Positions 11,801 through 32,824 of a stretch of DNA of 64,000 bases are shown in pieces. Made by a program: the position numbers and the translations under genes. The notes beneath the pieces were generated by a model. It searched no databases. It was given only the letters and a program-made list of their open reading frames with translations, and had not been told where the DNA came from. Numbering within the stretch: the first letter of the stretch is position 1; each line of letters begins with the position of its first letter. Source of the DNA: Giardia intestinalis (Eukaryota); assembly GCA_000002435.2 (NCBI GenBank), contig CM018792.1; one strand, given 5' to 3'.

Positions 11801-14030
11801 GCAAGAGACGCTTGAAGCAACACTTAATCAGATCCTGTCCAACGTCCGCGAGTCCTGCGCCCAAATAGCTCTCAAGGAGCTTCACTTCACCAATAAGCCT
11901 CTCATCATGTCACTCTGTGGGAGCAAGGGAAGCCCCATCAACATCGCCCAGATGATTATTATTCTTGGACAACAATCCTTTGGAGGATCTAGGGCGCCTG
12001 ATGACTTCTACACTCGCTCAACTCCATATTTCTATCATTATTCAAAAGAGCCGAACGCAAAAGGGTTTATCCTGAACAGCTTTTATACTGGCTTGCTTCC
12101 ATTTGAATTCTTAGCGCACGCACGAGCAGGCCGAGATGGGGTCATTGACTCTGCCTGCAAAACAGCAGATACAGGGTATTTGCAGCGACGGCTTGTTAAG
12201 TGTCTAGAGGATCTTAGTGTGTCATATGATTTTACCGTGCGCAACAGCAAGAAGAGCGTGGTGCAATTCCGGTTTGGACACGATGGGTTTGATCCAATAA
12301 AGCTCGAAGTTGGGACTGGGCAGTGCTTCGATCTAGACACTTTGCTCAGACATATAATCTTGCTTAACAGATCACAAGATCTGGCCGAGGGGGCCTTCCC
12401 TGTTCTTCTGGATCGGTACAAGGCAGAGGCAGAGCTAGACGTCCTCCTGAACAAAGACTTTTACGGCCAGGAGGCTTGTTTGATTGAAAGAAGCAATGTC
12501 ACTAGCTATTTCCAGCAGAGCATATTGCCAAAATTAACTACGAACACACACATCGCCACTACTGTGGCCCCAGCACTTGCAGCATCATTCCTCCAAACAA
12601 CCCTTACCAAAAAGGACATAGATGATTTTCTAAGGCAGGTTCGGCGAAAGTACATTCGCCTGAATCTGGAACCGGGATCTCCATGCGGTGCGGTGGCCGC
12701 CCAGTCAGTCGGGGAGCCCTCCACTCAGATGACACTGAAGTCATTTCACCACGCAGGCTTAGCTTCCATGAACATAACGCAAGGGGTCCCACGGCTGAAA
12801 GAAATTGTCGATGGTGTGGTAAAGATATCCACACCAATCACAACCGTGGAGCTCCATGTAGATGTAGATAAGGAGGAACTGGCAGCAACGGTGACAGAAA
12901 AATATCTTGAAAAAGCGCGCATGATGAAGAACATCATCGAATGCACGTACCTTGGCCAGATATCTGCATCCATTATCGAGTGCTACAGCCAATCAGTTTG
13001 CCACATTGAAGTCAATTTGGATATGAAAATAATCGCAGACATGGGGCTTGCTGGGATCATAACGGTAGAGACGGTGGTAGCGTCCATCTTACACAACGAT
13101 AAGGCGAAAAAGCTAGTAGGACAGGACCAATCTTCTGGATCGGTAAGCATACACAGTGCCACAAGGTTCTCTGTCCGCCCCTTGACGCAGTCCAGAGACG
13201 ACTTGCTCTTCGACATTCAGAGCTTGAAGTTACTCCTTCCAATGATACCCGTTTCTGGCATATCTACTTGTAGTCGCGCGGTGATCAATGAGTATAAAGA
13301 GTTCTGCCAAGGCGCCACAAGCAGTGCACCGCTAACTAAGTACAATCTCCTTGTGGAGGGTATTGGGTTACAAAACATCCTAAATGTCAGTGGAATTGAC
13401 TTTACACGCACTCTGTCCAATAATATCGTAGAGGTAGCAAATACTCTTGGGATAGAGGCTGCAGTGGCCACAATATCCAACGAGATAAAGGCCTGTATGG
13501 ATAGCCATGGTATGGCCGTAGATATGCGACATATCCGCCTTCTTGCAGACATTATGTGCTTCAGGGGCCGAGTGCTAGGCTTTACAAGGTTTGGCTTGAC
13601 AAAGATGAAGGCCGATTCCGTAATCATGCTTGCAAGCTTCGAAAAGACTGGTGAGCACCTGTTTAATGCTGCACTAGGGAATAAGGTTGACGAAGCAAAC
13701 GGTGTTACAGAGTCTATCATACTAGGGAAACCGATGAGTATGGGAACAGGATCATTCTCGCTATTGCAGGCACCGTACTTTGATGAAAAAACGGGCAAGA
13801 CGATTGAGTACCAGCCTAAGCAGACAACCCGCTTTCTAGGGGAGGTCCTAAATAAACAGTACGATGAAGAGGTGGACGCTATAGTTAACGCGTTTTGGTA
13901 CGACGAAAAGCTTTATCTAACGGGTGCGGAGGCTAAGGCAAAGCTTCTTCGTGGAAGGCGGCATGCAAATAAGCGCTCCTGGTCGCGGGGAAAAGAAAGA
14001 CACGCTAGTTTGAAGCCAAAGAATCGATAA
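8805..14030 (+). CDS. RPC1: DNA-directed RNA polymerase largest subunit, best fitting Pol III RPC1 (C160)
   Basis: The first ATG is at 8805 because the track start at 8784 is TTG. Zinc-clamp region: CATCGKDTKMCIGHFG. Catalytic loop: LLFNRQPSLHRMSIM...NADFDGDEMN followed by EARAEA...LMG and TQDFLTG. Bridge helix: GRDGVIDSACKTADTGYLQRRLVKCLEDLSVSYD. C-terminal GTGSF. The EDLS..YD, TQDF.TG and LFNRQPSLHR.SI. patterns match Pol III C160 better than Rpb1 or A190. There is no CTD heptad array. Confidence 0.75.
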   Translation: MEPNRRLRYFRSEIPQPVTEHRFPKRVEKLVFSVLSSNALMKLSEVQITTPILYEHYPSPATNGVLDKRLGLSDKVGKCATCGKDTKMCIGHFGTISLALPVFHPGLINDARTMLSIVCPFCSRVKISEADRLKYKVLNHKFSLAIVKEAQEQAKKQVNCPFCHAPSTICKKSQGFRVLREMHYEERATKILADVIKHQKDIEKIQELDQRLRNHVVDPIQALHILQKVPECDYPYLGIPWQSRNVYASQQTPDSIASNDASQLFSRGSSKLLARTASRFIAQHQGISDRATRLTSHAFLTRPQDVILTHIPVPPSCLRPSVQSGSGAGTTEDNLTSHLVRILTINDKLKEAMVSGAVATSKVYAKWDQLNMDVSLLYIGKIPGGVQPVKNKTDSGTKEGTGIIDRLKGKAGRFRSNLSGKRVNFSGRTVISPNPYLSMQQVAIPRLIAQNLTFPEIVTSRNIRFLRELILNGKTYPGANEVLLLNDTIRYNPALKRLGIDVKQSRDMEAKAMELVSRCVDTFNLNSLCADLPELQAAIQHLVSESSNAINSELKAEDLPQNQPLFAKEVYDPAQKGESNNIDNNVCEIDELKLEDTADYQVGESAGQASTVAVEQPPESRTVLKLNSIASLQLTNASSQHLSTFKLNTVSLLQKDRRGRQAIANSLRPNDIVYRHLLPNDTLLFNRQPSLHRMSIMQFNAVIHENRTFSFNPVVCSPFNADFDGDEMNIFYMQGQEARAEAGILMGSHENIISPRHGECMIGLTQDFLTGIYLLSGKGIFMTRQEYCQHVSYGCDGFGDATYGVSLYNYGREFIKSIHDRRGTEEDTVGFVKVPCLSQPCIVYPRQLYSGKQVLSVLMKGNDFDSVNINLEHGDKTYKKDSDRRALSVNDDYIIIQNSEHLVGRLTKTFLASSKNCIFYFLVQNYGPVSAARIMLRFAKVAARFLMNYGFTIGIDDVMPSQRVLGKKEVIVQEGYEKAQEKIRDYESGKLEAIPGSTVQETLEATLNQILSNVRESCAQIALKELHFTNKPLIMSLCGSKGSPINIAQMIIILGQQSFGGSRAPDDFYTRSTPYFYHYSKEPNAKGFILNSFYTGLLPFEFLAHARAGRDGVIDSACKTADTGYLQRRLVKCLEDLSVSYDFTVRNSKKSVVQFRFGHDGFDPIKLEVGTGQCFDLDTLLRHIILLNRSQDLAEGAFPVLLDRYKAEAELDVLLNKDFYGQEACLIERSNVTSYFQQSILPKLTTNTHIATTVAPALAASFLQTTLTKKDIDDFLRQVRRKYIRLNLEPGSPCGAVAAQSVGEPSTQMTLKSFHHAGLASMNITQGVPRLKEIVDGVVKISTPITTVELHVDVDKEELAATVTEKYLEKARMMKNIIECTYLGQISASIIECYSQSVCHIEVNLDMKIIADMGLAGIITVETVVASILHNDKAKKLVGQDQSSGSVSIHSATRFSVRPLTQSRDDLLFDIQSLKLLLPMIPVSGISTCSRAVINEYKEFCQGATSSAPLTKYNLLVEGIGLQNILNVSGIDFTRTLSNNIVEVANTLGIEAAVATISNEIKACMDSHGMAVDMRHIRLLADIMCFRGRVLGFTRFGLTKMKADSVIMLASFEKTGEHLFNAALGNKVDEANGVTESIILGKPMSMGTGSFSLLQAPYFDEKTGKTIEYQPKQTTRFLGEVLNKQYDEEVDAIVNAFWYDEKLYLTGAEAKAKLLRGRRHANKRSWSRGKERHASLKPKNR

Positions 14031-16041
14031 TATTGCGTTTCTGTTCATCACTTAAGCTACACGTGCACAGAATCTTTTCTGCGTGAGCAACTGTAACTCT
14101 CTCGTATGGAAGAAGCCTTGTGATCACGTCTATGTGCCCCTTCTTGAGGGCGAGCTCTATGGCAAGTTCACCGCTCTTTGATCGCATCCCTGCTTCCCTG
14201 GTCGCCAAAGCTGCCACACACTCCGGCTTGTTGTGTATAGCAGCCAGAATGAGAGCTGTATAGCCAGACTTATTAGCCATTCCTCCCTCTTCCTCCAGTA
14301 AGCAGTGGACAACGTGTGGATGGCCGCCCATGGCTGCTGCCATGAGTGCTGTTTTAAAGCTGTGTGTGTCACGATAGCGAGCCTCGTACGGCAGGAGAAT
14401 CTGAACAACCTCCTTATATCCATGGTATGCCGCAATCATCATTGCAGTGGCATTTTCAAAGCTAAGTCCATAGAAAACCCTGCTCTGCATGCGCATTCCG
14501 GCCTCATACTTGGCCAAATAGCGAACGCTTTCTACATTATTACAGCGAGCCGCAAGCATTAACGCAGACATGGATTGGCAGTTGAGCCTTCCCAAGAATC
14601 TATGGAAGAGCCCTAGGCTCTTATATTTGTTATGATAAGCTAGCTCATGGAGAGGAGTGTTGCCGCTATCATCTGAAATTGTCTCTAGGGGCACCAGTAT
14701 CCTGTAAGCGTCTTGGTTGTTAAACTTGATGGCATAGTTAATAGCAGCGAGCCCATCGAGGTCGCGAAGGCCGGATTCTATGGACACTAGCAACTGCACC
14801 GCCTGCGAGTCCCCTACTATAACTGCCATCATCAATGCAGTAAGGTTTCTGTGGGTCAATCGCAAGTGGTGACTGTCGACCAAGTTTTGCAGTAGGTCAC
14901 GGCGTTCAGGACTATGAAAGTAGGCAGAGTCATAGTCATATCTCATGATATGCATCATAAGCTCTGTGTACCCTGCAAAGCTTAGAGCCAGGCGTTCTAG
15001 AGGTAGCAATGCTCTGACTAGCTCCAACCTACCTGATAAAAGAGCATGCTCAGTGGCACAGCACCCATGCATATCAACATGCCCCGCCTCACACGCTGCT
15101 AGCGCGTAGCAAGAACAATAGTTTCCGTTGGTCACTGCTTCCATCAGGGCTGTAGTACCGCGATCGGTCTTAACTCCAGCATCGAAAAGTCTGCGAAGGA
15201 GCACGTTACAAACATCATCATTTGTAGCAGCTTCTATTAACTGTGTCTTGTGCTTCTGCGGAAAGTCGCTCATATGCAGATGCAGACAGAGTCGCTTATA
15301 CCGCTCTTCCACAGTCCTTGCTGCTTTAAGCTCAAGCAGACCAGTTCTTTCAGCGGAGCTGTGCTCCATTGCTAGACATATCTCCTGCACAACAACTTTC
15401 GGGAGCTTGGTGAAGGAAACAAGGGCTAAGTAGTTATCTCGTCGGTCCGATGAGTAAACCTCCGGATACGGACCAGAAAGAGCTACGCTGAAAACTGTTG
15501 CAGCTACAATCCAGGGCACGGTGTCTGGACAGAAAAAATCTCTAGAGGATACATCGAGAGGTGCATTATCTGCCTCAATTCCCAACTCGGTCAGCATTTG
15601 GAGAGTCGCCAAAGAGGCAGAGCAGTCACCTGGGCCTGTCCAATTCCTAAAGCACAATCGGAAGACGATTCTCCCTATCCTGGTAACATACATTTTAGAA
15701 AGACAAAAGAGCCTGGTAAACACGTCATGCTGCCATTCTTCGGGGACGCTTTCTACCAGATAATTAGCGAGAATGACGAGTTGACAAAACAAGTCTTCGA
15801 CAAACGCGGAGTCCGGAGGCTCACAGATGTTAATGCACGTTTTACAATACTCCGCGAGAGACTGCTCCCCGCCCCACATGCACGAAACAACAATACAGCT
15901 ACTCCCAGCCTCGTCATCTAGCACGTCTTGAATCGGCACCAGGTGGCAGCATCGTAGCCTACCAAGGCATGAGATAGCCTCCATGAATGCATCCAGTGAT
16001 GTGTCTGTCATGTGATGATAAGAGCTTATCTCCCCCCACAT
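14005..16041 (-). CDS. Ankyrin-repeat protein of the Giardia 'Protein 21.1' type with a degenerate kinase-like N-terminal region
   Basis: It carries multiple G-x-TALM-x-A ankyrin repeats (TALMEAVTNGN, TALMAAAMGGHPHVV, YTALILAAIHNK). The track start at 16119 is TTG, and the first in-frame ATG is at 16039-16041. The 3' end overlaps the RPC1 3' end by 26 nt. Confidence 0.7.
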   Translation of the reverse strand: MWGEISSYHHMTDTSLDAFMEAISCLGRLRCCHLVPIQDVLDDEAGSSCIVVSCMWGGEQSLAEYCKTCINICEPPDSAFVEDLFCQLVILANYLVESVPEEWQHDVFTRLFCLSKMYVTRIGRIVFRLCFRNWTGPGDCSASLATLQMLTELGIEADNAPLDVSSRDFFCPDTVPWIVAATVFSVALSGPYPEVYSSDRRDNYLALVSFTKLPKVVVQEICLAMEHSSAERTGLLELKAARTVEERYKRLCLHLHMSDFPQKHKTQLIEAATNDDVCNVLLRRLFDAGVKTDRGTTALMEAVTNGNYCSCYALAACEAGHVDMHGCCATEHALLSGRLELVRALLPLERLALSFAGYTELMMHIMRYDYDSAYFHSPERRDLLQNLVDSHHLRLTHRNLTALMMAVIVGDSQAVQLLVSIESGLRDLDGLAAINYAIKFNNQDAYRILVPLETISDDSGNTPLHELAYHNKYKSLGLFHRFLGRLNCQSMSALMLAARCNNVESVRYLAKYEAGMRMQSRVFYGLSFENATAMMIAAYHGYKEVVQILLPYEARYRDTHSFKTALMAAAMGGHPHVVHCLLEEEGGMANKSGYTALILAAIHNKPECVAALATREAGMRSKSGELAIELALKKGHIDVITRLLPYERVTVAHAEKILCTCSLSDEQKRNIIDSLASN

Positions 16042-16281
16042 AGGCGCACCTGTCACCCGAGAGAGGAGGACGCACGATCCTTCTTCCGGGCCACTCAAAA
16101 TAAGCACATAGCTCTCCAAAGGAGAGACTCTTTTGATCGTCTCCCCCCTTGCTTCTGCAGTGCGACTTACGGCAGGCTCCAGTGCTGAGGGATGAAGAGA
16201 CTACAATCAACACCCAGTGGCAAAAATAAACGATATTAATTTCACTTTTGTAACTCAAAAAGACACCCTCTCGAACTAGCA

Positions 16282-16525: not shown

Positions 16526-19500
16526 CTACTGTCGCAGGCTAGAAATTCCAAGAGTGTGAGCGACCCGGTCTGTCTTTTCGGAGGTCGTGGTGGGGATGGC
16601 CTGGGGGCGCGTAGAGGACAGAATGAGTGACTTTCCTTGGGATTCTACAGAGAGAATTGCCCGACTTCTCCGTCCAAAGGCACCCCTTATCACTGATATC
16701 ATGCGGGTGAACATCCCACCTCTCTCCTTTCTTTGCTCCGACGATTCTGCACTCGCCTTTCCGGCCTCAAGCCTTGCCATCTCGACCGATCGAAACTTTG
16801 CTAAGTCCTGAAGTGTTCCGTGGACAGCATCCTCTGCGGTTAATTGCTCTGGGTTTGCTCCCAAAAGGATAAGGGTTGCAAGGTCCGAGTTGGGGACTAT
16901 TGCGTTCGCTGCATTCCTTATGTCTTCCAAGAAGCGATTGGACGCGTAGTAGATGTCTATTTCATTCATTGTCTGCAGGATGAGCTCATTGATATCTTCT
17001 ATGGTGGTCCCAGAGTTGTGGGCGATAGTGGCCATGAGCTTCATCTTCTCCTGAGCATTCATCTTCTCAACAAGGGAGTATGTAAGCATGTCCTCCAGAG
17101 AGATAGAGGACTCCGAGCCAAATGAGCCTGAGCTGCGTGTGGAGCGCCCACCAAGAGACACTAGAGATCTAGTCCGTATGCTAGGATCTTGCTGAGCTGG
17201 CTTTTGAAGTGGTGGCTCACCGTCACTCTCCGAGGTTCCTCCAGACCTATATGTCATGTGGCTCAGGTCTACCTTTCTATCAAAAAGAAGCTTGCGCAGA
17301 CGCTCTTCAATGCTGACCGGGGGATTGATGCATGAATCATTGATAGAATCTGCAGACAGGTTAGCCGTTAAAACCATTGCAGGTGCAGCTGCCACAAATT
17401 CGTTGCCGGAACCATCCACGTTATCTTCCTGATTGTAATTATGTATAGGCCCCAGAGCGCTTCCTGAGCGCGTAAGATTGGACAGGAGCAGAACGCCGTC
17501 CTTCGGCTGTGAGAAGACTGGCACTGACTTGGTTGAACGACGAGAGAATGGCTGCGTCCCTTTTAAGGACATGATCAAGGAGTCAGTAATCGATCGCCCT
17601 GCTGGCATAACAGGCGACTTCAAGTGCATAATCTTCTCTCTCTCCGACCTAGCCCCAGAGAATTTTTCTGGGCTGACAAGAGTGGTTCCGACAAAGGAGT
17701 GAGGCTCCAGAATAGGTATCTTCGATGTGATATCTTCAAATGTATCCAGTTCGTTGACAAACTCCTCTGGTAGCCGTTTCAGTTCTCTTCTATCCACTGC
17801 AATCTTCCTTCCCCCAGATGCAGTCAAGGGTCTGTCTATGGCTGTATTGATGCTGTGGTTCACATCGCTGAGCGTAAGTGGATGATCTATTGCTGTTTGC
17901 AGAGTGGCACCAGTTGGAAGATAGACAGTGTTGTTCTGTTGGCTTGCCATCAGCTGAGAGCTCAGGATGGCCCTGCTTCCTGCCACCATAGAGTGTCCCA
18001 TAAAGCGGCTAGTTGCTAGTGAGCTGAAAACGGAGCTGTGAGAGCGCGAAGCTAGTTCGTGCTGGTGTTGCGTATCATTGAGCTGCAACATCAGGTTTTG
18101 TATGGCTTCCGATTGCATGTTTGCTATGTCGTGCATATTACTTAGAAGAGTCTTGACCCGTGAATCAAGAAAGTATATCTTGCTCAGCAGATCCCAGTCT
18201 AAATACTTGGAAGGAACAAGGTCCCGTAAGATGTTGGAAAGATCGGCTACCTCTGCATGCCTCTCAAAGCTTTCACCCTTGGAAAACACTGATGTGCGAA
18301 GAAAGTATGATTGTATGGAGCTGGTCCAGACCAGAACCTTAGAAAGCTGCTCTTCTAGCATATCCTGCAGTTCTGTTAGACGTTGAGACGGTCTAAATCC
18401 AACTGTGAACTGGCTTGCCTCATCTATTACTTCTCGTAGAAGCTTCAGGTCGAACTTGCTATTAAAACTTTTGTCTACTATGTCAGTGGCTACCTGCTTT
18501 TGAAATTCTTGATACAATGATAATAGTAGCCTGGCAATCAGGCCAATCTGGTAGAATTTAAACTCCTCGCTATTCATCTCACAACGCCGTCCATTTGACT
18601 CTTCATCGTCGACGTTTTCTGGCATGGTTCCATAGAGCTCCCCAGAAGGAGCCGCGCTCTTCAGTAGCTCATCTATAAAGGCCTTGTCAGGACTTGGCAG
18701 AATACACACCTCCAACATCTTGCATATCGTGGAGTGGTTGTTGGCAACATCAACCTCAAATGTGTAGAGAATAGAAGACACTGGTTCTGCTTGATGTTCG
18801 CTATGCTTGAGAGGATGAGACGTGAGATAGTACCCTGGCAGATGACCATCTCGTGAGGTAATGTAGTAACACCAGAGCTCGAGTATTAGAAAAGCGGCGT
18901 AGAAATTGATGCAGTACTTAAAAAGCCGTTCGAGAATGTGCAGCTCAACTTCAAGGTAGAACTCTCTGGGCCGTCCAGAAGACCGAATGTGGTTGTTGAT
19001 GATTTTATCCAGGACTTTGCACTCAATATCTGTTGGCTCTTTAGAAACGAAGCCATTAATCTTTAAATTCTTAATCTCAAGTGGCGAAATATCTGAATTA
19101 TCGAGTAGAAATGGGGTAGATTGCTTGGTACCGTCAGTAGCATTTATAATAGAACTGGCAAGATAATATTGGTTATTATTGTAGTCTGAGCCCAAATCCA
19201 GCGCTATCCTATGTGTTGTATTACTAAGTGCTTCCGCAGTACATGTGTCTGGATAGGGCTCGCGGACTTGGAGTGAGGGGTCAGGCGGATGATCAAATGG
19301 TGTAGTACCTACAGAGCCTATATCTAGCGAGCTCGCACCATCCTTTGGTGCAATTTCGGTGCGTAAGCTCTCCAGCTCCGCCTTGAGCATGTTGTCAAGA
19401 TGACTCTCTGTGACAGCAACAGTACCAGCCAGATCGGGCGCTAATTTGTTTGCCTCTAGTTCCAGTTGTTCAACACTGCTCTGATCCTGTCCTTGATCTA

Positions 19501-21637
19501 CGTGGTTGATCATCTTTAGTGATACTGTACTAAGATCGACAACAGGGAGTTCAGATGACATAACATCGGAGATGCCCACAAGGGTGCCTACAGCGGTAGG
19601 AGCATCCTCCACCCGAGAGTCTATGTTTTCTATGTTAGAAGTAAGCGTTGCAACCACATTGGATGGGTCTTTAGCTGGTAGGTTTGGCATGCAAAAGGAT
19701 CCGTAATGATGCTTGCAAAATAGGTCCACAGGTCGGAACTGCATCTTAAGACTCAGAGGCACGGCAGCGTCGTTTTCAGATAGCTTGTCTAGTCCAGCAA
19801 TAACTATGTTGGTTGAATCGGACGAGACAAGGTCCTTGTAAGAAAATGTAAAGACGGTGTCTTCTACTGTGGTTACAATGACCCAGAGAGAGGTAATTGC
19901 AATTGCAGCAACGGCCACGCGGGTGGGGGTGACAATCTTATGACGGAGCTTCAACGCCATTTTATTGAATGTCTTGCTATGAACAAGCTCACAGATGTGA
20001 ACTTCAGCTGACTCAGTGGACCCAATGAATAAGTAATCTGACGACATGCTCATGGCAAGCACATTAGGGATGAATGGTGCGTTATATGCGCCAACAAGCT
20101 TCTTTCCATTGTAGAGAAATACATTATTCTGCCTGTAAACTCGATGGTCTGTCTTGACCATATCGTCGCGGAGCCCTGAAATGACTGCGGACGTGAATGA
20201 CCCTGGAGACGTAGCTGACCCGGATGTGCTGTTGGACCTAACGCAATCTGAAGATTGACTCCCAGGGGGTGCTGCCTTGCGCTTATCTGAAGGATAAGTT
20301 TTTTCCGGGCGTGGGGGTTGCGCTGTAGAAGTGGGTGTCTTCCCTCGGACGTGGGGCGGAGCAGTTGTTTCTTCAAGAATGGTAAAATTCAGAGAGGAGA
20401 TCATCGTACTGTTGGTGCTAGTAGTGCTAGTAGTGCTGAAAGTGCTGTTGGTAGCGTTGGCGCTTGCACTTCGAGCAGAAGCTCCCGTGGAGCACATGGA
20501 GAGGAAGTTCATTCCATAAATTACACAGAAGTGATACTGTTTCTGGTTCTTGCTGGACATCTCCTCATCTAGAATACTCCTTGCCAAGGCAGAAGCGATC
20601 AAGTTTCGCTCGCCAATCCTAAAGGACGGGTCCTGCTCCAGCAGAAGACCAATAGGATACACAGAGTACAGATAAGAGAACTCATTTTCTATATAGTTTC
20701 CTGATTCTTCTGCGTGAACCCGTAATCGTAGTACCTTGTCTTTGTAACAGAGAGTAAAGAGCTCGACTGCTGCCAGCCGTTTGTGAACAAATAGTATGAA
20801 AGAGTTCTGCTTAACATTTATCAGCGACTGATCACTGGCCATCTTCATGCTCCGCTGATCGACTAAAATCATATCTGGCTCTCTTATAATTTTATAGTGC
20901 ACGAGCACGTGCTGAGTCTCACTGTGCGGTTTAAGGTTTGGCGCAATTATTACGCCGCTCTTTGTCCTCCTGCTATACCCGACCATGTAGCCTGCTTGCA
21001 AGCAGTGGATGCGCGAAAAGTCCTGAAAGTCTAGCTTGTGGCGCGATAGTTTGGAAAGAATATCATGCTGATCCATCAAAAACGTAACGCCTTCCACTGT
21101 TACGCTCTTGGGGTGCCTTGCTGGAGGAGACATCTGTGTGGAGACAGTAGGGATCTTGCTTCCGCTTTTAGTGTCTGACACATTCACCTCAACCGAGAAT
21201 TGGTTAAGTGGCACCTTGAAGAACCACAGATCGACGCCATCTGTCCCCAGAATATACATGGTCTCAGAAATAATGACTGATGAGTTTAGGCCTAGAAGTT
21301 CTACTATCTCTATACTCCCGAGAGAGTACTGATCATTGTGAAGCTCAATGAGAAAGTCCCTGTCGGACAGAGGTGTAAACACGAGAGAGGAAGAAGGAGA
21401 AGGCGTGTGAGATGCACGAGCATCGCTTGACACATCTTCCTGAAGACCTAAAGTTGGAGTGACTGCTCTGAGAAATAGCTTATTGGATGAAAAGTATGCC
21501 ATGAAGGGGAGATGCTTATAAGTAGCACTGCCAGTCACCGGAATCTGCACGAGATATATGCTTTTCTTAATGTCCTTATACATATCTTGGAGAAGAGTTT
21601 CCGACCGTCTGCTCAAGATGCCTGCCACAACAGCCAT
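16526..21637 (-). CDS. Large hypothetical protein of about 1,703 aa, with a possible beta-propeller-like N-terminal region and an internal Ser/Thr-rich low-complexity tract
   Basis: The ORF is continuous. The track start at 21664 is GTG, and the first ATG is at 21635-21637. An S/T/N-rich stretch (SASANATNSTFSTTSTTSTNST) is encoded around 20380-20470. No family is confidently recognised. Confidence 0.65.
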   Translation of the reverse strand: MAVVAGILSRRSETLLQDMYKDIKKSIYLVQIPVTGSATYKHLPFMAYFSSNKLFLRAVTPTLGLQEDVSSDARASHTPSPSSSLVFTPLSDRDFLIELHNDQYSLGSIEIVELLGLNSSVIISETMYILGTDGVDLWFFKVPLNQFSVEVNVSDTKSGSKIPTVSTQMSPPARHPKSVTVEGVTFLMDQHDILSKLSRHKLDFQDFSRIHCLQAGYMVGYSRRTKSGVIIAPNLKPHSETQHVLVHYKIIREPDMILVDQRSMKMASDQSLINVKQNSFILFVHKRLAAVELFTLCYKDKVLRLRVHAEESGNYIENEFSYLYSVYPIGLLLEQDPSFRIGERNLIASALARSILDEEMSSKNQKQYHFCVIYGMNFLSMCSTGASARSASANATNSTFSTTSTTSTNSTMISSLNFTILEETTAPPHVRGKTPTSTAQPPRPEKTYPSDKRKAAPPGSQSSDCVRSNSTSGSATSPGSFTSAVISGLRDDMVKTDHRVYRQNNVFLYNGKKLVGAYNAPFIPNVLAMSMSSDYLFIGSTESAEVHICELVHSKTFNKMALKLRHKIVTPTRVAVAAIAITSLWVIVTTVEDTVFTFSYKDLVSSDSTNIVIAGLDKLSENDAAVPLSLKMQFRPVDLFCKHHYGSFCMPNLPAKDPSNVVATLTSNIENIDSRVEDAPTAVGTLVGISDVMSSELPVVDLSTVSLKMINHVDQGQDQSSVEQLELEANKLAPDLAGTVAVTESHLDNMLKAELESLRTEIAPKDGASSLDIGSVGTTPFDHPPDPSLQVREPYPDTCTAEALSNTTHRIALDLGSDYNNNQYYLASSIINATDGTKQSTPFLLDNSDISPLEIKNLKINGFVSKEPTDIECKVLDKIINNHIRSSGRPREFYLEVELHILERLFKYCINFYAAFLILELWCYYITSRDGHLPGYYLTSHPLKHSEHQAEPVSSILYTFEVDVANNHSTICKMLEVCILPSPDKAFIDELLKSAAPSGELYGTMPENVDDEESNGRRCEMNSEEFKFYQIGLIARLLLSLYQEFQKQVATDIVDKSFNSKFDLKLLREVIDEASQFTVGFRPSQRLTELQDMLEEQLSKVLVWTSSIQSYFLRTSVFSKGESFERHAEVADLSNILRDLVPSKYLDWDLLSKIYFLDSRVKTLLSNMHDIANMQSEAIQNLMLQLNDTQHQHELASRSHSSVFSSLATSRFMGHSMVAGSRAILSSQLMASQQNNTVYLPTGATLQTAIDHPLTLSDVNHSINTAIDRPLTASGGRKIAVDRRELKRLPEEFVNELDTFEDITSKIPILEPHSFVGTTLVSPEKFSGARSEREKIMHLKSPVMPAGRSITDSLIMSLKGTQPFSRRSTKSVPVFSQPKDGVLLLSNLTRSGSALGPIHNYNQEDNVDGSGNEFVAAAPAMVLTANLSADSINDSCINPPVSIEERLRKLLFDRKVDLSHMTYRSGGTSESDGEPPLQKPAQQDPSIRTRSLVSLGGRSTRSSGSFGSESSISLEDMLTYSLVEKMNAQEKMKLMATIAHNSGTTIEDINELILQTMNEIDIYYASNRFLEDIRNAANAIVPNSDLATLILLGANPEQLTAEDAVHGTLQDLAKFRSVEMARLEAGKASAESSEQRKERGGMFTRMISVIRGAFGRRSRAILSVESQGKSLILSSTRPQAIPTTTSEKTDRVAHTLGISSLRQ

Positions 21638-21895
21638 TGAGCCGTCCGGTTTAATAAATGACACCCAAAATCTCCATTTTTTGAATTGTTAATCTGGTAT
21701 GCCATGAAGTGAAGCTACAGAACATGATGATATAATTTATTCTACCTTGTACTTTATCATCTAGCGCCTTTGGTATCAAAATCTGAGAGCAAAAGCACGC
21801 AAGAGTCTAGGCTCTTCTGGGAAGTCAAGTATGGTTGCATACATAAGTGGTGTTGAGCCTCAACTGTCATGCATGGAGAGCTCAATCAGTAGCAG

Positions 21896-22627
21896 CTATA
21901 CACATCCTACGTGACCATGGCTCAAAGCGGGCATGAACGCCGTTGCACCAGATAGGTCTTGTATCCCTACTTCACACAAAAGCTGAAGAACATAGTCGGC
22001 TCAGCCCGCAGAAGCTGCCATCATCAGCGCAGAGCGACCTCTGAAGCCCAAGCCAGCATCTTCCATATACTGCTCAACGCTCTGAAACTCTTCGTTTCGA
22101 ACAGCCGTCATAAGCAACGTCTCACCATAAGTATCTTTTCCTATGCGCAGAGGTAGATTATATTGGATTTTGCTCGCAACTGAGTACTGACAGAGTACCG
22201 GTGATGACTTGATTCTCCTAGAATTGCACGCAAAGTGCAGGGATTCGGTTGCAGCTGAACTGGTGGCAATGCTTGAAATACCGTCACGGAGTAAATCTAC
22301 ATTGTCTTGGACAGTAAGGTTCAGTACCTCTTTCTGCGTAAGCTCTGCGTAAGCATGGATTGCACGACGAACATCGAAGAAGTAAGTACAACACGAGGAA
22401 CCATGCCTCTTATTCCAGAGACACACTGACGAGTCTAGATCATCTGCGCTAGTAGACAGCTTGGTATAAGAGAGGTTACGGCTGGATGACCTCCAGTTGC
22501 ATGTTGCGGATTGATTGGAGAATGAATGGATAAGTGAGTGGAAGATAGAAGCTCTGATTCTGCAGAGGCACGTGGCGGCGGCGTCCCACAGCCGTCCTAG
22601 ATGAGCTCCTGCACCAGTCGTTCTCAC
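21896..22627 (-). pseudogene. Probable decayed ankyrin-repeat (21.1-like) gene remnant
   Basis: ORF 22001-22627 starts with GTG. It ends in two ankyrin-type repeats (GETLLMTAVRNEEF...GRSALMMAASAG) followed by TGA at 22001-22003. The same frame then continues the repeat pattern (ADYVLQLLCEVGIQDLSGATAFMPALSHGHV) for 35 more codons to TAG at 21896-21898. There is no in-frame ATG until about 33 codons before the TGA. Confidence 0.4.
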
Positions 22628-22837
22628 GCTACTACCTATCTACAGACGCACATCTGTCGTGATACCGTGCAATATACTAATAACACGGGTTGCCACCTGT
22701 CTGGACCAACTGGATTGAGTTAACAAACAAGTAATCAGACCCATCGTGTTGTCGTCTCAACAAGGGAATCGGTGGAGGCTTCAACAGGACGCGTGGCATG
22801 CTCATCAGTCGTTGCCAATTAAGTTACTTAAAACCAA

Positions 22838-23368
22838 ATGGCCACTCCATCGGCGGAAAAGGCAGACACACTCAAGGAAACAGTGGATTATGTGACAGAG
22901 GCGATTAAGCAATTAGAGATGGAGCAGGAGCAAGTCGCAAATGACAAGCACCCAGAGTTTCAGCGCCTACTTGCGACTTTGGATGCCACACGTCTTCGCC
23001 TCTTGTCCATAGCAGAGATACAGTATCAGCTATCTATTCAGCATGCTAAGCACACCATGGAGTATACAAAAGCGCAAATTGAGGCCGATTTCCTCGTCGC
23101 CAGGGACGATGTAAAAGACAAGCTCTACAATGATCTGCGGAGACGCCGGAAGGAAATCAAGGATCTGATAGACAAATTAGCTCAGCACGGGGTCTCGGTT
23201 GAGCAGGAGTTAGTTGACAAGCTTGACACGCGTTTTCCTGCACGAAAGAGGACCCGTGAAAATTCGCGGTCCCAGCGCCCAGAGTTCAACCTCAAGCTCT
23301 CTGAGCACGAGATCCGCGAGGACACCGTGTACATCCAGTCCTTGCGACAGGAGAACTCTAGTAAATAA
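22838..23368 (+). CDS. Small coiled-coil protein of 176 aa, hypothetical
   Basis: ATG confirmed, with an AT-rich leader (aattaagttacttaaaaccaa). The sequence is charged and heptad-like. AGTAAAT overlaps the TAA stop at 23360-23368. Confidence 0.6.
   Translation: MATPSAEKADTLKETVDYVTEAIKQLEMEQEQVANDKHPEFQRLLATLDATRLRLLSIAEIQYQLSIQHAKHTMEYTKAQIEADFLVARDDVKDKLYNDLRRRRKEIKDLIDKLAQHGVSVEQELVDKLDTRFPARKRTRENSRSQRPEFNLKLSEHEIREDTVYIQSLRQENSSK
23360..23366 (+). promoter_or_regulatory. AGTAAAT polyadenylation-signal-like element overlapping the stop codon of the 22838-23368 gene
   Basis: The sequence ctctAGTAAATAAcag matches the Giardia AGTRAAY consensus. Confidence 0.4.
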
Positions 23369-23378
23369 CAGAGCAGAT

Positions 23379-23774
23379 TCACTTTATGCTCATGGCGATC
23401 CTCTTCATGGCCATCTTGCGCTCCCTTCTGAGCTTGGCAATCTTGCCCATGTCCTCGAACGTCGCCTTAGCACGGAGACGCTGCTGCTGAATCTTCTTGC
23501 CCCAGACGGAGTTCATGAACGTGTCGATGGCAGGAGATGCTTCTATCTCTTTCTTAAGCTGCTCTGTCGTCGGCTTTTCAGAGATGTTTATCACCTGGTC
23601 CGTGAGCATGGCCCATCGGAGGGAAACGACCTGGCGCTTGACGCCCGTTGTGGGACCATCGATCAGGACTGCCGCTGTGCTCAGGATGTCCACTATGACC
23701 GCCAGCTTCCCCTTATCGGGCCCGTCGCCGAGATAAACGAGCCTTCCCGCCTCCACAAACCTATGGTAGGACAT
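23379..23774 (-). CDS. RPL14: Ribosomal protein L14e
   Basis: The second codon is the ATG at 23772-23774; the first codon in the track is TTG. The product reads SYHRFVEAGRLVYLGDGPDKGKLAVIVDILSTAAVLIDGPTTGVKRQ..., and the KOW-like N-terminus and basic tail match eL14. Confidence 0.85.
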   Translation of the reverse strand: MSYHRFVEAGRLVYLGDGPDKGKLAVIVDILSTAAVLIDGPTTGVKRQVVSLRWAMLTDQVINISEKPTTEQLKKEIEASPAIDTFMNSVWGKKIQQQRLRAKATFEDMGKIAKLRRERKMAMKRIAMSIK

Positions 23775-23839: not shown

Positions 23840-24232
23840 TCAGATCTCGTAGTCGTGGATGTTGTCCATGTGGAGTGGAAACACCCACTCGCGGGAGGCG
23901 ATGTGTAGAAAAGCGTATCCGACAAACGTACAACTGAGAAACAGCCCAGCGATGACGCTCCGAGAGTTATGATAGTTTGCAGCAGCAACCCCCGTCACGG
24001 TAGTAACAGTCACAGCGCAGAGTAGCACATAAAGAAGCTTCTGGTGGTGTGTGTAGCGCGTAATGAGACAGTACAGGAAGCATAGCGCACATATGGCCGC
24101 CTGGCCCTGGACGATGGAGGCAAGCTTCCGATCCAAGGCTGTATGGCGGCCGAAGAGCAGGGGGAGGGCTTTGCGAATGGCGTCCATCATATATTTTTTG
24201 TGCAGATGACTCGCCGCCACGTGTTTACTCAT
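23840..24232 (-). CDS. Small predicted multi-pass membrane protein, hypothetical
   Basis: The track start at 24253 is TTG, and the first ATG is at 24230-24232. Alternative ATGs exist at MMDAIRK near 24190. Three hydrophobic helices are visible (AAICALCFLYCLI; LLYVLLCAVTVTTVTGVAA; VIAGLFLSCTFVGYAFL). The start overlaps the RPS20 stop by 8 nt. Confidence 0.45.
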   Translation of the reverse strand: MSKHVAASHLHKKYMMDAIRKALPLLFGRHTALDRKLASIVQGQAAICALCFLYCLITRYTHHQKLLYVLLCAVTVTTVTGVAAANYHNSRSVIAGLFLSCTFVGYAFLHIASREWVFPLHMDNIHDYEI

Positions 24233-28687: not shown

Positions 28688-30208
28688 ATGAGTGAATTGC
28701 GTACTCTGCACACGCAAATAACCATTATTGGGGGACACACGAAGCCAATCCGTGGTTTGTATGTGGGAAGCAATTTTCTGATAGTCGCAGACGAAGCCCA
28801 GGTGTACTACTACAAACGACCCTATGAAGACGAGGATTCATATGGGATTGAGTGTACCTTTAAGGATAAATTTGGAGGCCCTATCTCTTGCATGGCCTAC
28901 AGTATAGCCTATGGCGTTGAGCTTCTCTACTTGGGCACCACCCTTGGGTGCCTAAACGTTGTTCGCCTGAAGACAGCGAACGGACGGAGAACGATGCATC
29001 TAGACCACTTCTTCTATGTTGGGAGGGCTGCAATTCGAAAGCTACAGTGGCTAACTATGGCTAAAATCTTAGTGATAACTGCTGCATCTCCTGACATTTA
29101 TATGTATGTGCCTCTGCTCGGGCAAGTTTTCTCCCGAAGGGTCTCGAATAAGCCCCTCACGCATAGTTTTCTGGACGAGCTCACAGAGGCACTTTATATT
29201 TCTGATTCACGGGACTATGTGAGGGTCTTCAACATACCTCTTAGCAATCCAGGAATTATCAATCAGAATGCGGCAGTACGAGGATCGTCCTTGTTTGTTT
29301 CTTTGTACGACGGTACATCATACACTCCGACAACCTCCATTTTCGCCTCTGGGATGGGCTCTACTAAAGCACAGACTTTTAATAGAAAATTCCACGAATC
29401 AAGTAGTACTAAGCAAACGACAGACAAGCAAACGACAGACGAGCTTTCCACAATCAAGATTAGAAACAACACTAACTTTAGCATATCAATGGTTCCTAAG
29501 ACCACTGCGCCATCCACTATCTATTCACTTAAGCCAAAGAAGCACCGTGGCAAGAAAGTTTTAGCTAAACTTTCTAATTTCTTTAAACGGTTTTCTAAGC
29601 ATACCAGCCAGGCAAGGCGTGTAGAGTCATCGGAGCTTGGTGTGTGTGCTTTGCAAATAGAGGGTCTGGGGGAGAATGCTATCGATACTAGTACCAGAGC
29701 TGTCTCAATTGTGACAAGCTGCACTGGGCAGGACGCCGTCTACGTACCCAAACTAGTTGCTGCGTTAGGAATGAACTCGGCTCGACGGCTAGTGCAATCT
29801 GCGCACAAGAAATCTATCCGAACCTTTCTGATCGACCCCGTCAACGGGCTAATATTTACTGGAGGAGATGACAAGGTCATTGCCATATGGAACATCGAGT
29901 CGCTGTTTGTGTCTGGTGAATCATACATAATCGATACCAGCAACTTCAACTACAAAAAAGTCACAACACTGGCCTTTTCACCTTTGCGTCTTGTGCTTTT
30001 CAGTGCAGACGAAAGCGGGGCTATTAACGTGTTTGATGCCAACAACCTCCTTATTGTTAACACCTGGCTTGCACACAGCGGTCCCATCAATGGAATCTTT
30101 CTTGATGACGAGGCAGGGCTACTCTACACATATGGCAACGACGGACTTATTAAGGTCTGGCGCGTTTGGATAGACGAGTCTGAGTGCCTTGTCGCTAAGA
30201 GGAAGTAG
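28688..30208 (+). CDS. WD40-repeat protein
   Basis: The track start at 28625 is TTG, and the first ATG is at 28688. WD-like repeats end in LIFTGGDDKVIAIWNI and LLYTYGNDGLIKVWRV. An internal 15-bp tandem duplication encodes KQTTDKQTTD. Confidence 0.65.
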   Translation: MSELRTLHTQITIIGGHTKPIRGLYVGSNFLIVADEAQVYYYKRPYEDEDSYGIECTFKDKFGGPISCMAYSIAYGVELLYLGTTLGCLNVVRLKTANGRRTMHLDHFFYVGRAAIRKLQWLTMAKILVITAASPDIYMYVPLLGQVFSRRVSNKPLTHSFLDELTEALYISDSRDYVRVFNIPLSNPGIINQNAAVRGSSLFVSLYDGTSYTPTTSIFASGMGSTKAQTFNRKFHESSSTKQTTDKQTTDELSTIKIRNNTNFSISMVPKTTAPSTIYSLKPKKHRGKKVLAKLSNFFKRFSKHTSQARRVESSELGVCALQIEGLGENAIDTSTRAVSIVTSCTGQDAVYVPKLVAALGMNSARRLVQSAHKKSIRTFLIDPVNGLIFTGGDDKVIAIWNIESLFVSGESYIIDTSNFNYKKVTTLAFSPLRLVLFSADESGAINVFDANNLLIVNTWLAHSGPINGIFLDDEAGLLYTYGNDGLIKVWRVWIDESECLVAKRK

Positions 30209-30214
30209 TTCTAT

Positions 30215-32824
30215 TCACGCTTGGATGGTGAGTATAACGTTGTATGCTATACTATTAACTATTACTAAGCCAAGGACAGCAAAGAATAGGCTCATGTAGC
30301 TTTTCATTGCAAAGAAGGGCTTGGTGTCTCCTGATGTCAGTACGAACGGAGCTGGAGTTGGAGCCGAAGCCGGCTCGGGGCAAATGGTAGAATTGTTGTT
30401 ACTGGTGTCCAAGACGTGAGTAGAAGGCTGTTGAAGCGGCCCGGTATATATTGCGGATACGGTGGCAGGCGCAACGCTCTTCGTGACGAAACGTGTTTGA
30501 TCATAGAGAGAGCTTTCATTGGGAGACAGAATAGACAGCTGCTGAGGACCCTCTCCACAAACGCTGGCAGACATGCTATTCAACTTGGCATTTGGCTCTC
30601 CAGCGCACACAACTACAGGCTCATCGGTATTGCGAGGCAGAGCGAATGGTTGCACTCTACCATCTGCAATAACGCTAGATGGAGTGGCAGCTGAATAGTT
30701 CCCTGTTTCTGAGCGGTCCCGGCTGCTTTTCTCTTGTAACATGAACATGGTTAAGGTCTGTTGGGTCTTCATGATATGCTCAATCTGTTCATTGTGTCCA
30801 GTTATGAGCGTCGTTATCTTCTCAAACCCACTTGAAAGAGACGCACAATGTTCTGTATTTTGTTTTGTCAGAGCATCAAGTCGTTCTATTTTTTCGCTTA
30901 TGCCTGCTAAGAGAGTTGATAAGGATTTTTCTACCCCCTCGAAACTTCCATCACCTCTGGGAGAGTACTTGCTCGGGCGATTAGTTGCCCCTGGTGTGAT
31001 GTTTGCACTCCCTGCATTCGGCACAGCACACTTGGCAAGAAGCTTAAAGCAGTCTTCATGCCCAGGACTGTTAACGTCTTCTTGTGCGCCACCTGCGCCG
31101 GAATTGTGGATCGATAGTTCTTCACTGGAAACCTTAGTTTGGCTGAAGAGATGAGCTGCTTCGTCTGTGATATCTGCCCTTTCATGTGCAACCCCAATAG
31201 AAACACACGGTAATGATAGATCCTTCGGCGAAGTATTCTCTTCTGTCCGCTCACTGATCGTGCGGCAATTATCAGAGGTGCAGATAGACACCAGTTCTTG
31301 GCTTATATTCTGTGCATTAGCCTTTTGAACAGATTCCTTTACCAACTTTGAGATTGCTGGAATTTGTCCTTTATTAGCAATTTTTGGCCGTACAACATGG
31401 GGCTCAGAGTCATAGGGCCCTACCTTACTGAATGATTTGCGGGAGATATTGCGGCCGACATCTGACGAGCCTGCCCGCCGAGGGACGGACCTGGAAGCCG
31501 ACGAGGACCTGCTGCCCGAGCGCATTGTCCTGATAGACTCTTTAGAAGGTGTCTGCTTCATTGGAGTAGTCATGGGCCCAACGTCCTTGTGGATTGCTAA
31601 CCTCTCAGTAGACCTACTTCTATTTGGTCCCGGAGAGATGGTGTCCCGTGACACGCCCCTGGGTTCTTTGCTCTTAGGCCTGCGAGCCTCCTGTGGAGTG
31701 GTTCGCGTATTGGCAGCACGCAACGGTATTGGCTTGGTATTGGGGATCGTCAGGCGAGGGGTTGCGTGAAGCAAACTAACAGTAGAGACAGGCCTCTTGG
31801 CTTCTTCCATTTGATCTGGAAAGCTGCTGATCTCGGCATCCTGCTGACAGGTATCTATAGTTTCCTGGGCAGCAGCGTGCGTTGTAGTCGGAAGTGTAGC
31901 CGAGGGTTCAGTGGTTGCAAGAAGGCCAGGGGCAGCGGAGGCTAGTTGCTTAGAGAGGCTGGCAGATGAGCCAATAATGATGTCCTTGAACGCAGTATCT
32001 CTAAGATACGATGTGAATCCACGTTGAGAGGAGTCAATACAGTCCTTTTCTAGTTCAAACAGTAGCTCTGCTACATCCTTCGCACCATGGATGATGGCAT
32101 AGAACAGTGCACATTTATCTCCGTCATCAGGATTGGTCAGTTTGGCACAGTCTGAGATGTGGTCCTGGACGTACTGCACATCGTTTGTGGCAGCCGCATA
32201 GAACCACGGATGTGTTGCTCTGAAAGACGGATCCTCTACCATGGCCCGTTGCTCAAGAAACGATGTGACCAAGTTGATACAATCTGTCTGGGCATCTGTC
32301 AACTCACGATCACATGTACACTCCTGGACTATGACTGTTGTGAGACTAGAACACTCTGATGGGAGGAGCAGTTGCACAGATTCTTTGTGGCCGGACATCA
32401 TCGCCATGGCCAGGGCATTACAACCTTTAGGAAAGTCTGAAACGGGCTCCTTCAGTGTGGCGTTGAGCTCTCCTTCGTAGGAGAAGAGAGTTTTTATAAT
32501 GGTGGTGAAGCCATGAAGAGATGCCCGCATCAGGCCGGTGATGCCACGATAGTCTGAGAGACCTGCCTCAAGAGGAGCTAGCTCCTGGACAATAGGCTGA
32601 TGACCAGAATCGCACGCAAACATTAGCGCCGTCCAGTGCGTGTCGCAGTAGATTCGCGCCTCATGACCCTTTAATACGCCCACCACTTCACGGCATCCGT
32701 AGCGGGCCGCGATCATCAGCGCAGTATAGCCCCCGCTTGTGGTCCGTGAACCCTTCATCTGGCGACAGTAGGCCTTGATGTATGAAATGTCACCTGTCCT
32801 GGCCGCCCTGAACCACTGATCCAT
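30215..32824 (-). CDS. Ankyrin-repeat protein (21.1 type) with a C-terminal transmembrane anchor
   Basis: ATG confirmed at 32822-32824. The N-terminus MDQWFRAARTGDISYIKAY...GYTALMIAARYGCREVV...WTALMFACDSGHQPIV is classic 21.1. The final ~30 residues are hydrophobic (FFAVLGLVIVNSIAYNVILTIQA). Confidence 0.75.
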   Translation of the reverse strand: MDQWFRAARTGDISYIKAYCRQMKGSRTTSGGYTALMIAARYGCREVVGVLKGHEARIYCDTHWTALMFACDSGHQPIVQELAPLEAGLSDYRGITGLMRASLHGFTTIIKTLFSYEGELNATLKEPVSDFPKGCNALAMAMMSGHKESVQLLLPSECSSLTTVIVQECTCDRELTDAQTDCINLVTSFLEQRAMVEDPSFRATHPWFYAAATNDVQYVQDHISDCAKLTNPDDGDKCALFYAIIHGAKDVAELLFELEKDCIDSSQRGFTSYLRDTAFKDIIIGSSASLSKQLASAAPGLLATTEPSATLPTTTHAAAQETIDTCQQDAEISSFPDQMEEAKRPVSTVSLLHATPRLTIPNTKPIPLRAANTRTTPQEARRPKSKEPRGVSRDTISPGPNRSRSTERLAIHKDVGPMTTPMKQTPSKESIRTMRSGSRSSSASRSVPRRAGSSDVGRNISRKSFSKVGPYDSEPHVVRPKIANKGQIPAISKLVKESVQKANAQNISQELVSICTSDNCRTISERTEENTSPKDLSLPCVSIGVAHERADITDEAAHLFSQTKVSSEELSIHNSGAGGAQEDVNSPGHEDCFKLLAKCAVPNAGSANITPGATNRPSKYSPRGDGSFEGVEKSLSTLLAGISEKIERLDALTKQNTEHCASLSSGFEKITTLITGHNEQIEHIMKTQQTLTMFMLQEKSSRDRSETGNYSAATPSSVIADGRVQPFALPRNTDEPVVVCAGEPNAKLNSMSASVCGEGPQQLSILSPNESSLYDQTRFVTKSVAPATVSAIYTGPLQQPSTHVLDTSNNNSTICPEPASAPTPAPFVLTSGDTKPFFAMKSYMSLFFAVLGLVIVNSIAYNVILTIQA

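Follow-up and report, generated by a model that had tools for sequence, protein, structure and literature searches.

The window analysed here, a stretch of DNA of 64,000 nucleotides, contains 1200 bp (21638-22837) that lie between a 1703-aa gene on the minus strand (16526-21637) and the 176-aa gene GL50803_6026 on the plus strand (22838-23368). Each of the two genes bounds this gap with its ATG, which for GL50803_6026 is at position 22838. An earlier note on this DNA, made from the sequence alone, had claimed that the gap contains no ATG-initiated ORF of 60 aa or more. A six-frame scan bore this out, with zero such ORFs overlapping 21638-22837 and the longest ones measuring 44, 42 and 40 aa. 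It is the largest gap of this kind in the 64-kb window; the next internal ones are 376 and 338 bp long, and the 861-bp ATG-ORF-free gap that opens the window is an edge effect. A scan of 21000-23500 against Rfam at E<=1 gave zero family matches, and the gap is therefore not accounted for by any known RNA gene.

GL50803_006026 of Giardia duodenalis WB and the DH protein are both identical to the product of the ORF at 22838-23368, and the window is G. duodenalis assemblage A, WB-like. The genes in the neighbourhood include those of the ribosomal proteins L14e and S20 and several ankyrin genes. Between L14e and S20 lies a small gene (23840-24220, minus strand), called as 126 or 130 aa and giving weak transmembrane-like Pfam hits, which has 3.4% segregating sites among assemblage A isolates, 2-6 times the proportion in its ribosomal-protein neighbours. 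Elsewhere in the window, the RNA-polymerase large-subunit ORF (8784-14030, plus strand) and a convergent ankyrin gene (14005-16119, minus strand) overlap by 26 bp at their 3' ends (14005-14030), and strain P15 keeps an identical 26-bp overlap (7642-9678 and 9653-14878 of contig L018). The 960-aa ORF at 862-3744 (plus strand), which gave a weak above-threshold match to PF12009, the telomerase RNA-binding domain (E=8.5e-07, 29.6 bits, cut-off 25), is probably, judging by this match, the Giardia TERT.

On the minus strand of the gap, an ORF of 208 aa (22001-22627) runs from a GTG codon to ...GRSALMMAASAG and is terminated by a TGA (22001-22003) lying within an ankyrin repeat. The GTG start, the TGA inside the ankyrin array and the resumption of an ankyrin repeat in the same frame (ADYVLQLLCEVGIQDLSGATAFMPALSHGHVGCV) before a second stop, TAG (21896-21898), had all been described in the earlier note and were found again here. 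What it had missed is that the same frame continues beyond this TAG with LLLIELSMHDS, a TGA (21860-21862) and GSTPLMYAT...; two further ankyrin-like units thus lie past the stop at 22001, broken by the TAG at 21896-21898 and the TGA at 21860-21862. It had also counted a single internal ATG, 33 codons from the end of the ORF. There are actually four, at residues 173, 188, 202 and 203, and the first one is 36 codons before the stop.

When read through its stops, the translation matched Pfam Ank_2 with E=3.4e-27 and 95 bits against a cut-off of 27, an ankyrin signal far beyond chance, and Ank, Ank_3, Ank_4 and Ank_5 were above their cut-offs as well. Approximately four ankyrin repeat remnants survive, the orthologues described below having many more. 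TALM-type motifs were recognized by eye, as TALMLAS, TALMIAA, TALMYAA, TALMSAS and SALMMAA in the orthologues and in degenerate forms in the remnant (TLLMTAV, SALMMAA, TPLMYAT and TAFMPAL, the last of which is TALMLAL in other assemblage A isolates).

Intact positional orthologues in other assemblages

A word-indexed protein search with the read-through translation returned the ORF itself only, and the orthologous DNA was reached via the two flanking genes. Assemblage E (P15) was represented by contigs L018 and L006 (adjacent ACVC01000126/127), assemblage B by L019 and L012-16, and a fourth, more divergent lineage by L020 and L007-10. In P15, in a B metagenome contig and in the fourth lineage, the orthologue of the 1703-aa gene is immediately preceded, on the same strand, by an open frame of 643-651 codons that extends to the contig end. 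On the other side, approximately 215-250 bp from the GL50803_6026 orthologue, E, B and the fourth lineage have an ATG-initiated 5' end that begins M(T/A)(Q/H)ELIS... in all three and goes on (G/S)YRDA(V/A)FVDRGSAGALFRAVRAQDGAVVAVRALDPERL in E and B.

The P15 orthologue is GLP15_3986 (EFO63572.1), annotated as 'Protein 21.1' and matching Pfam Ank_2 with E=1.7e-57. Its length of 1713 bp is that of the 570-aa gene call adjoining GLP15_3985 in L018. The gene models of GLP15_3986 and of its GS counterpart GL50581_544 are 5'-truncated because the contigs begin within the gene; in practice, a dead-Nek kinase domain situated in the assembly gaps is probably missing from both models. Pairwise omega values for the intact copies of E, B and the fourth lineage ranged from 0.078 to 0.110, indicating that the gene is functional in these lineages and under strong purifying selection.

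The earlier note had read the gap as holding a pseudogenised paralogue of Protein 21.1 and had proposed a comparison with other assemblages. The intact positional orthologues found in E, B and the fourth lineage support the pseudogene reading. Membership of the 21.1 family also stands, through the ankyrin arrays, the TALM-type motifs and the synteny with the annotated family member GLP15_3986, although the intact ATG-initiated ORF needed for a functional 21.1 protein is absent from the window copy. The remnant is, however, the dead positional orthologue of GLP15_3986 and GL50581_544 and not a decayed extra paralogue. As expected of a unitary pseudogene, the flanking genes are the same in A, E, B and the fourth lineage, the ancestral 5' and 3' spacers are kept, and there is no sign of retroposition. 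We conclude, with a probability of about 0.95, that 21638-22837 holds a unitary pseudogene, in which a gene probably combining a Nek-type kinase with TALM-ankyrin repeats has died in assemblage A; that gene is intact in E, B and the fourth lineage.

Some additional contigs gave observations of their own. In an E-like contig (L021, Logan SRR14195738), 98.7% identical to P15, the orthologue contains two in-frame stops, CAA>TAA at L021:316 and TGG>TGA at L021:~1001, and all differences from P15 but one are transitions. These stops might mark another, independent pseudogenisation, or else come from an error in the reads or the assembly. In L011, a distant Giardia-like contig with 46% amino-acid identity in the GL50803_6026 homologue, the homologues of the flanking genes are separated by an uncalled gap of 1.25 kb (L011:6754-8000; 55% GC) with no ankyrin homology. 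In the distant contig L017 the gene order is different and there is no gap. No ankyrin homologue was found at the syntenic place in these two distant Giardia-like contigs.

Lesions of the assemblage A copy

The lesions were read against the P15, B and fourth-lineage orthologues, using blastn and pairwise alignment. There are 12 of them, comprising a lost start codon, four nonsense codons, five frameshifting indels and two in-frame deletions (of ~735 bp and of exactly 696 bp). The body of the pseudogene, delimited by the alignments to the orthologues and by the Ank_2 match on read-through, extends on the minus strand from the ancestral start position to the retained stop (21757-22617). It measures 861 bp, compared with an estimated ~2.7 kb for the intact gene, so that ~1.8 kb are gone. 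All the lesions described below lie on the minus strand and are given in the 5' to 3' direction of the gene.

The ancestral ATG (22615-22617) is now a CTG, as seen in the upstream alignment with L006, L012 and L007: E, B and the fourth lineage share the sequence AAAAAATG(A/G)C(A/G)CA(G/C)GAGCT, in place of which the window has ...CTGGTGCAGGAGCT. Codon 7 (22597-22599), a TCG (Ser) in E and B, aligns with a TAG in the window and with TTG in the assemblage A contigs L002, L003 and L005. Homology breakpoints place the junction of the ~735-bp net in-frame deletion at 22576-22581. Homology to P15 stops at 22581 on the N-terminal side and resumes at ~22575-22566 on the C-terminal side, and the deletion would have removed the GC-rich dead-Nek kinase domain (approximately residues 14-258), the extent of the domain being taken from GL50803_94927. 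Three frameshifting changes come next. The alignments with P15 revealed a 28-bp deletion at 22492-22493, of a segment that is also present in B and the fourth lineage, and a 4-bp insertion at 22414-22417, which is absent, the ancestral state, in the assemblage A contig L004. An 11-bp tandem duplication at 22333-22354 (GCTTACGCAGA twice) is a single copy in L004 and in the orthologues.

In the ankyrin array, a CGA (Arg) has become TGA at 22001-22003, in a repeat that reads SAG-R-ADYV in E, B and the fourth lineage, and a CAG (Gln) has become TAG at 21896-21898, where the orthologues read GCV-Q-LLL. Both are fixed in all assemblage A isolates examined. The alignments further place the junction of the 696-bp in-frame deletion, exactly 232 codons, at 21882-21885, between two ankyrin repeats at their LLLIE and LLLAE ends. 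It is followed by a TGG (Trp) changed to TGA at 21860-21862, where L004 retains TGG, by a frameshifting deletion of ~0.38 kb at a CCAT(A/C)CAT microhomology (~21838-21846) and by a 1-bp deletion at ~21831. The ancestral stop is retained at 21757-21759, as …DTKGAR-TGA in the window and …DTKGVR-TGA in P15.

The spacer on the minus strand between this stop and the ATG of the 1703-aa gene (21638-21756) is better conserved than the pseudogene; its 119 bp contain 2 segregating sites among the assemblage A sequences, and 84.6% identity to P15 was observed over 21837-21600. It presumably holds the promoter of the 1703-aa gene. The divergent spacer on the other side, from the former start to GL50803_6026 (22618-22837), could be aligned with E, B and the fourth lineage and has a pi of 2.2% within assemblage A.

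The 208-aa GTG ORF (22001-22627, minus strand), which in isolate DH is DHA2_152026, was compared frame by frame with the P15 protein. It is in the ancestral frame only at ~22418-22492, from the 28-bp deletion as far as the 4-bp insertion, and once more below ~22332, past the 11-bp duplication, and is out of frame elsewhere. Judged from these frames, the ORF is a chimera, a chance reading partly outside the ancestral frame. A variant of it has been deposited in GenBank as ESU37758.1 (DHA2_152026, 'hypothetical protein, partial'), which is, in practical terms, a chance ORF within a pseudogene.

Neutral decay within assemblage A

Six assemblage A sequences, representing three lineages, were compared with one another. 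The stops at 22001 and 21896 are common to all six, which places the death of the gene after the A/E split and before the sampled A lineages diverged. Other lesions are polymorphic: the codon at 21860 is either TGG or TGA, the insertions of 4 and 11 bp are present or absent, and so is a 1-bp deletion at 22114. This last deletion is an extra one found in L003 and L004, where it splits the 208-aa ORF, and L004 also has a further 3-bp deletion.

The remnant is the only segment with indels in this comparison, with 19 indel columns in the pseudogene body and none in the flanking genes. Segregating sites amount to 6.1% and pi to 2.9% in the body, compared with 0.5-3.4% and 0.3-1.6%, respectively, in the flanking genes, and the pairwise divergence of the body (3.4-3.8%) is equal to the dS of its neighbours (0.02-0.06). 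The pN/pS ratio within assemblage A was 0.36-0.50 for the best-preserved block, a value based on 13-14 changes only and not clearly 1, and 0-0.14 for the neighbours. Between A and E, omega was 0.28 on 261 shared codons, and 0.014-0.14 for the flanking genes. With B and the fourth lineage as outgroups, 37 nonsynonymous and 3 stop changes versus 21 synonymous ones were assigned to the A branch, and 15 versus 16 to the E branch, a modest nonsynonymous excess on the A branch (odds ratio about 2) that by itself does not reach significance. With approximately four times the diversity of its neighbours, and its indels, the remnant is a convenient neutral marker and could help to separate assemblage A sub-lineages.

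We propose that the A copy lost its start codon and acquired nonsense codons after the A/E split and before the sampled A lineages diverged. Three large blocks would have been lost, namely the whole kinase domain (~735 bp), 232 codons in register between ankyrin repeats, and ~0.38 kb at the microhomology. Neutral drift would thereafter have added more frameshifts and one more stop, which vary between assemblage A isolates. The remnant has no coding function and probably no role at the RNA level either. The parts likely to matter are only the spacers at its two edges, which may serve the flanking genes as promoters.

Giardia possesses RNAi machinery, and a remnant whose coding function is dead might be kept as a non-coding element, as a source of small RNAs against GL50803_94927 or other 21.1/Nek genes, or as extended promoters. 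Such a role would fit with the persistence of ~860 bp in a window whose other intergenic gaps do not exceed 376 bp. However, the body evolves at a neutral rate with polymorphic indels, which argues against sequence constraint, the Rfam scan at E<=1 mentioned above was blank, and the WB pseudogenes tested for SAGE tags in the P15 genome paper reportedly had none, this locus not being among those tested. We consider this explanation very unlikely.

An even smaller probability is given to a short functional ankyrin protein still being encoded, either by the 208-aa GTG ORF or as a product of stop read-through. No stop interrupts this ORF in the window or in L001, L002 and L005, it is in GenBank as a hypothetical protein, and the three downstream stops are all in one frame. 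It lacks, however, an ATG start, approximately 40% of it is outside the ancestral frame and hence open by chance only, and in L003 and L004 it is cut by the deletion at 22114, which leaves pieces of 36+172 or 36+154 aa. The diversity, at the synonymous level and with indels, also goes against a coding reading, and read-through could not restore the protein, since the ancestral reading changes frame past the third stop. The least probable explanation, that the stops and frameshifts are assembly or sequencing artefacts in a gene intact in assemblage A, a concern already raised in the earlier note and for which one may invoke the difficulty of assembling the orthologous region in other assemblages, can practically be dismissed, because the identical 208-aa ORF is found on 176 independently assembled contigs, five further assemblage A isolates share the core lesions (TGA 22001 and TAG 21896 in all five), ~1.8 kb are absent from 62-66-kb contigs that cross the locus unbroken, and the P15 paper, using the original WB assembly, had arrived at the locus independently.

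Two other possibilities were considered and rejected. An alternative genetic code or read-through does not fit with the presence of two types of stop (TGA and TAG) and with the frame shifting past the third stop. An intron hiding the stops does not fit with their alignment to conserved codons within ankyrin repeats.

Probable kinase ancestry and relation to known genes

When the 208-aa ORF was used in an exhaustive representative search, the only matches were its L004 variant and three weak Nek/ankyrin relatives, including P0042. This protein, from a separate GS_B contig (L022), begins ...CLCVDPARRISAAAFATFPPALWALHRVEQAAPT, including the TFPPALWALHRVEQAAPT that opens the B orthologue fragment. 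Its WB counterpart is GL50803_94927 (Nek GK189), listed as 'Dead Nek - missing K72, D166' in the kinome catalogue of Manning et al. 2011. The first 54 residues of GL50803_94927 are identical to the N-terminus of the B orthologue at 48 of 54 positions, and to that of the E orthologue at 42 of 46. Its N-terminal region matched Pfam Pkinase with E=5.4e-22, and a TFPPALW... motif at residues 246-263 marks the end of the kinase region. The downstream part of the orthologues opens with TFPPALWALHRVEQAAP, which closes the kinase domain of GL50803_94927.

From these two domain ends, the intact orthologues most probably encode ~895 aa, made up of a dead-Nek kinase domain of ~260 residues and ~630 residues of linker and ankyrin repeats; ~190 codons in the middle of the kinase domain fall in an assembly gap in every non-A assembly reached. 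Like GL50803_94927, which is classed as missing K72, the orthologues have VVAVRAL in place of the VAxK of active kinases, the Asp166 region being unassembled. In the window only ~13 N-terminal codons and the last few codons of the kinase domain are left, and the domain as such is absent. On these sequence comparisons, the ancestral gene was probably a Nek/21.1 hybrid with a catalytically dead kinase domain, paralogous to GL50803_94927.

All non-A contigs fetched at the locus end inside the GC-rich kinase segment, eleven on the GL50803_6026 side and four on the other, the GS contig of the 94927-type paralogue also starts in the GC-rich segment, and the P15 paralogue model is x-filled there. The GC-rich cassette was also sought by exact pattern in JGI metagenome contigs, in two scans that gave no matches and left the assembly gap unbridged. 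The cassette has a GC content of 78-85% (L012:1-163, minus strand; L006:1-140, minus strand; L018:1-37) and is common to two otherwise divergent loci. In GS, the 3986-type and 94927-type loci are identical at 55 of 55 nucleotides (L019:1-55 versus L022:78-132) up to a sharp boundary, beyond which protein identity is ~27%. Between B and E the cassette is 95-100% identical (~7 of 140 nucleotides differ in the N-terminal part), compared with ~72% for the rest of the gene. At the domain boundary, both B copies have the residue T, and both E copies have S.

These observations, made on short segments, suggest a repeated kinase cassette that evolves in concert. Gene conversion, perhaps with a GC bias, might still be going on between Nek domains scattered through the Giardia genome, a tentative reading against which we hold the odds to lean somewhat. 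If it is true, the kinase deletion in assemblage A could be an ectopic-recombination by-product of cassette conversion. Cassette conversion would then also explain the breaks in the non-A assemblies and the annotation of the orthologues, mistakenly, as kinase-less 21.1 proteins.

The locus has been noticed before. In the structural-variation table (Additional file 6) of the P15 genome paper (Jerlström-Hultqvist et al. 2010; PMC3091692) it is given as 'Pseudogene in WB', with the entries contig483(30919..32631) Protein 21.1 GLP15_3986, CH991779(201709..202602) and contig703(29093..30559) Hypothetical protein (Protein 21.1) GL50581_544. The WB span of 894 bp in this entry matches the 861-bp body mapped here. 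The earlier note held that such a pseudogene is unusual in so compact a genome, which is not the case. Five other candidate WB pseudogenes, three of them 21.1, are listed in Additional file 2 of the P15 paper, 30 Nek pseudogenes were reported in the WB kinome (Manning et al. 2011), and, according to a 2023 long-read study, assemblages vary extensively in which Nek and ankyrin genes are present or absent.

The pseudogene is thus real, ordinary, already known in kind and in instance, and fixed in assemblage A. No published lesion map of this locus was found, and the locus is absent from the supplements of the kinome paper; to the existing record, the present analysis adds such a map, the evidence from the assemblage A population and the probable ancestry with a kinase. 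The biological weight of the finding is small, as it represents one more lineage-specific loss in the Nek and Protein 21.1 families, which are known for gene gain and loss between assemblages.

Compared with known genes, the remnant is like GLP15_3986 of P15 and GL50581_544 of GS in its position, with the same neighbours on both sides. Three blocks of GLP15_3986 are co-linear with it at 78-85% nucleotide identity, and the in-frame stops of the remnant correspond to Arg, Gln and Trp codons in the orthologues. The latter are open and constrained (omega about 0.1), whereas the window copy is ~1.8 kb shorter and carries the 12 lesions. GL50803_94927, the probable paralogue of the ancestral gene, shares with it nearly identical kinase-domain ends (48/54 aa; TFPPALWALHRVEQAAP) and a kinase-linker-ankyrin architecture that is co-linear to the C-terminus, as seen via its GS orthologue P0042 at 27% identity. 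It differs by lying at another locus, by being intact in WB and by an identity of ~27% outside the kinase domain. The Nek and Protein 21.1 pseudogenes described earlier in WB differ from this locus in that it had received only a one-line entry in the structural-variation table. They belong to the same families and present the same lineage-specific decay, with intact positional orthologues elsewhere.
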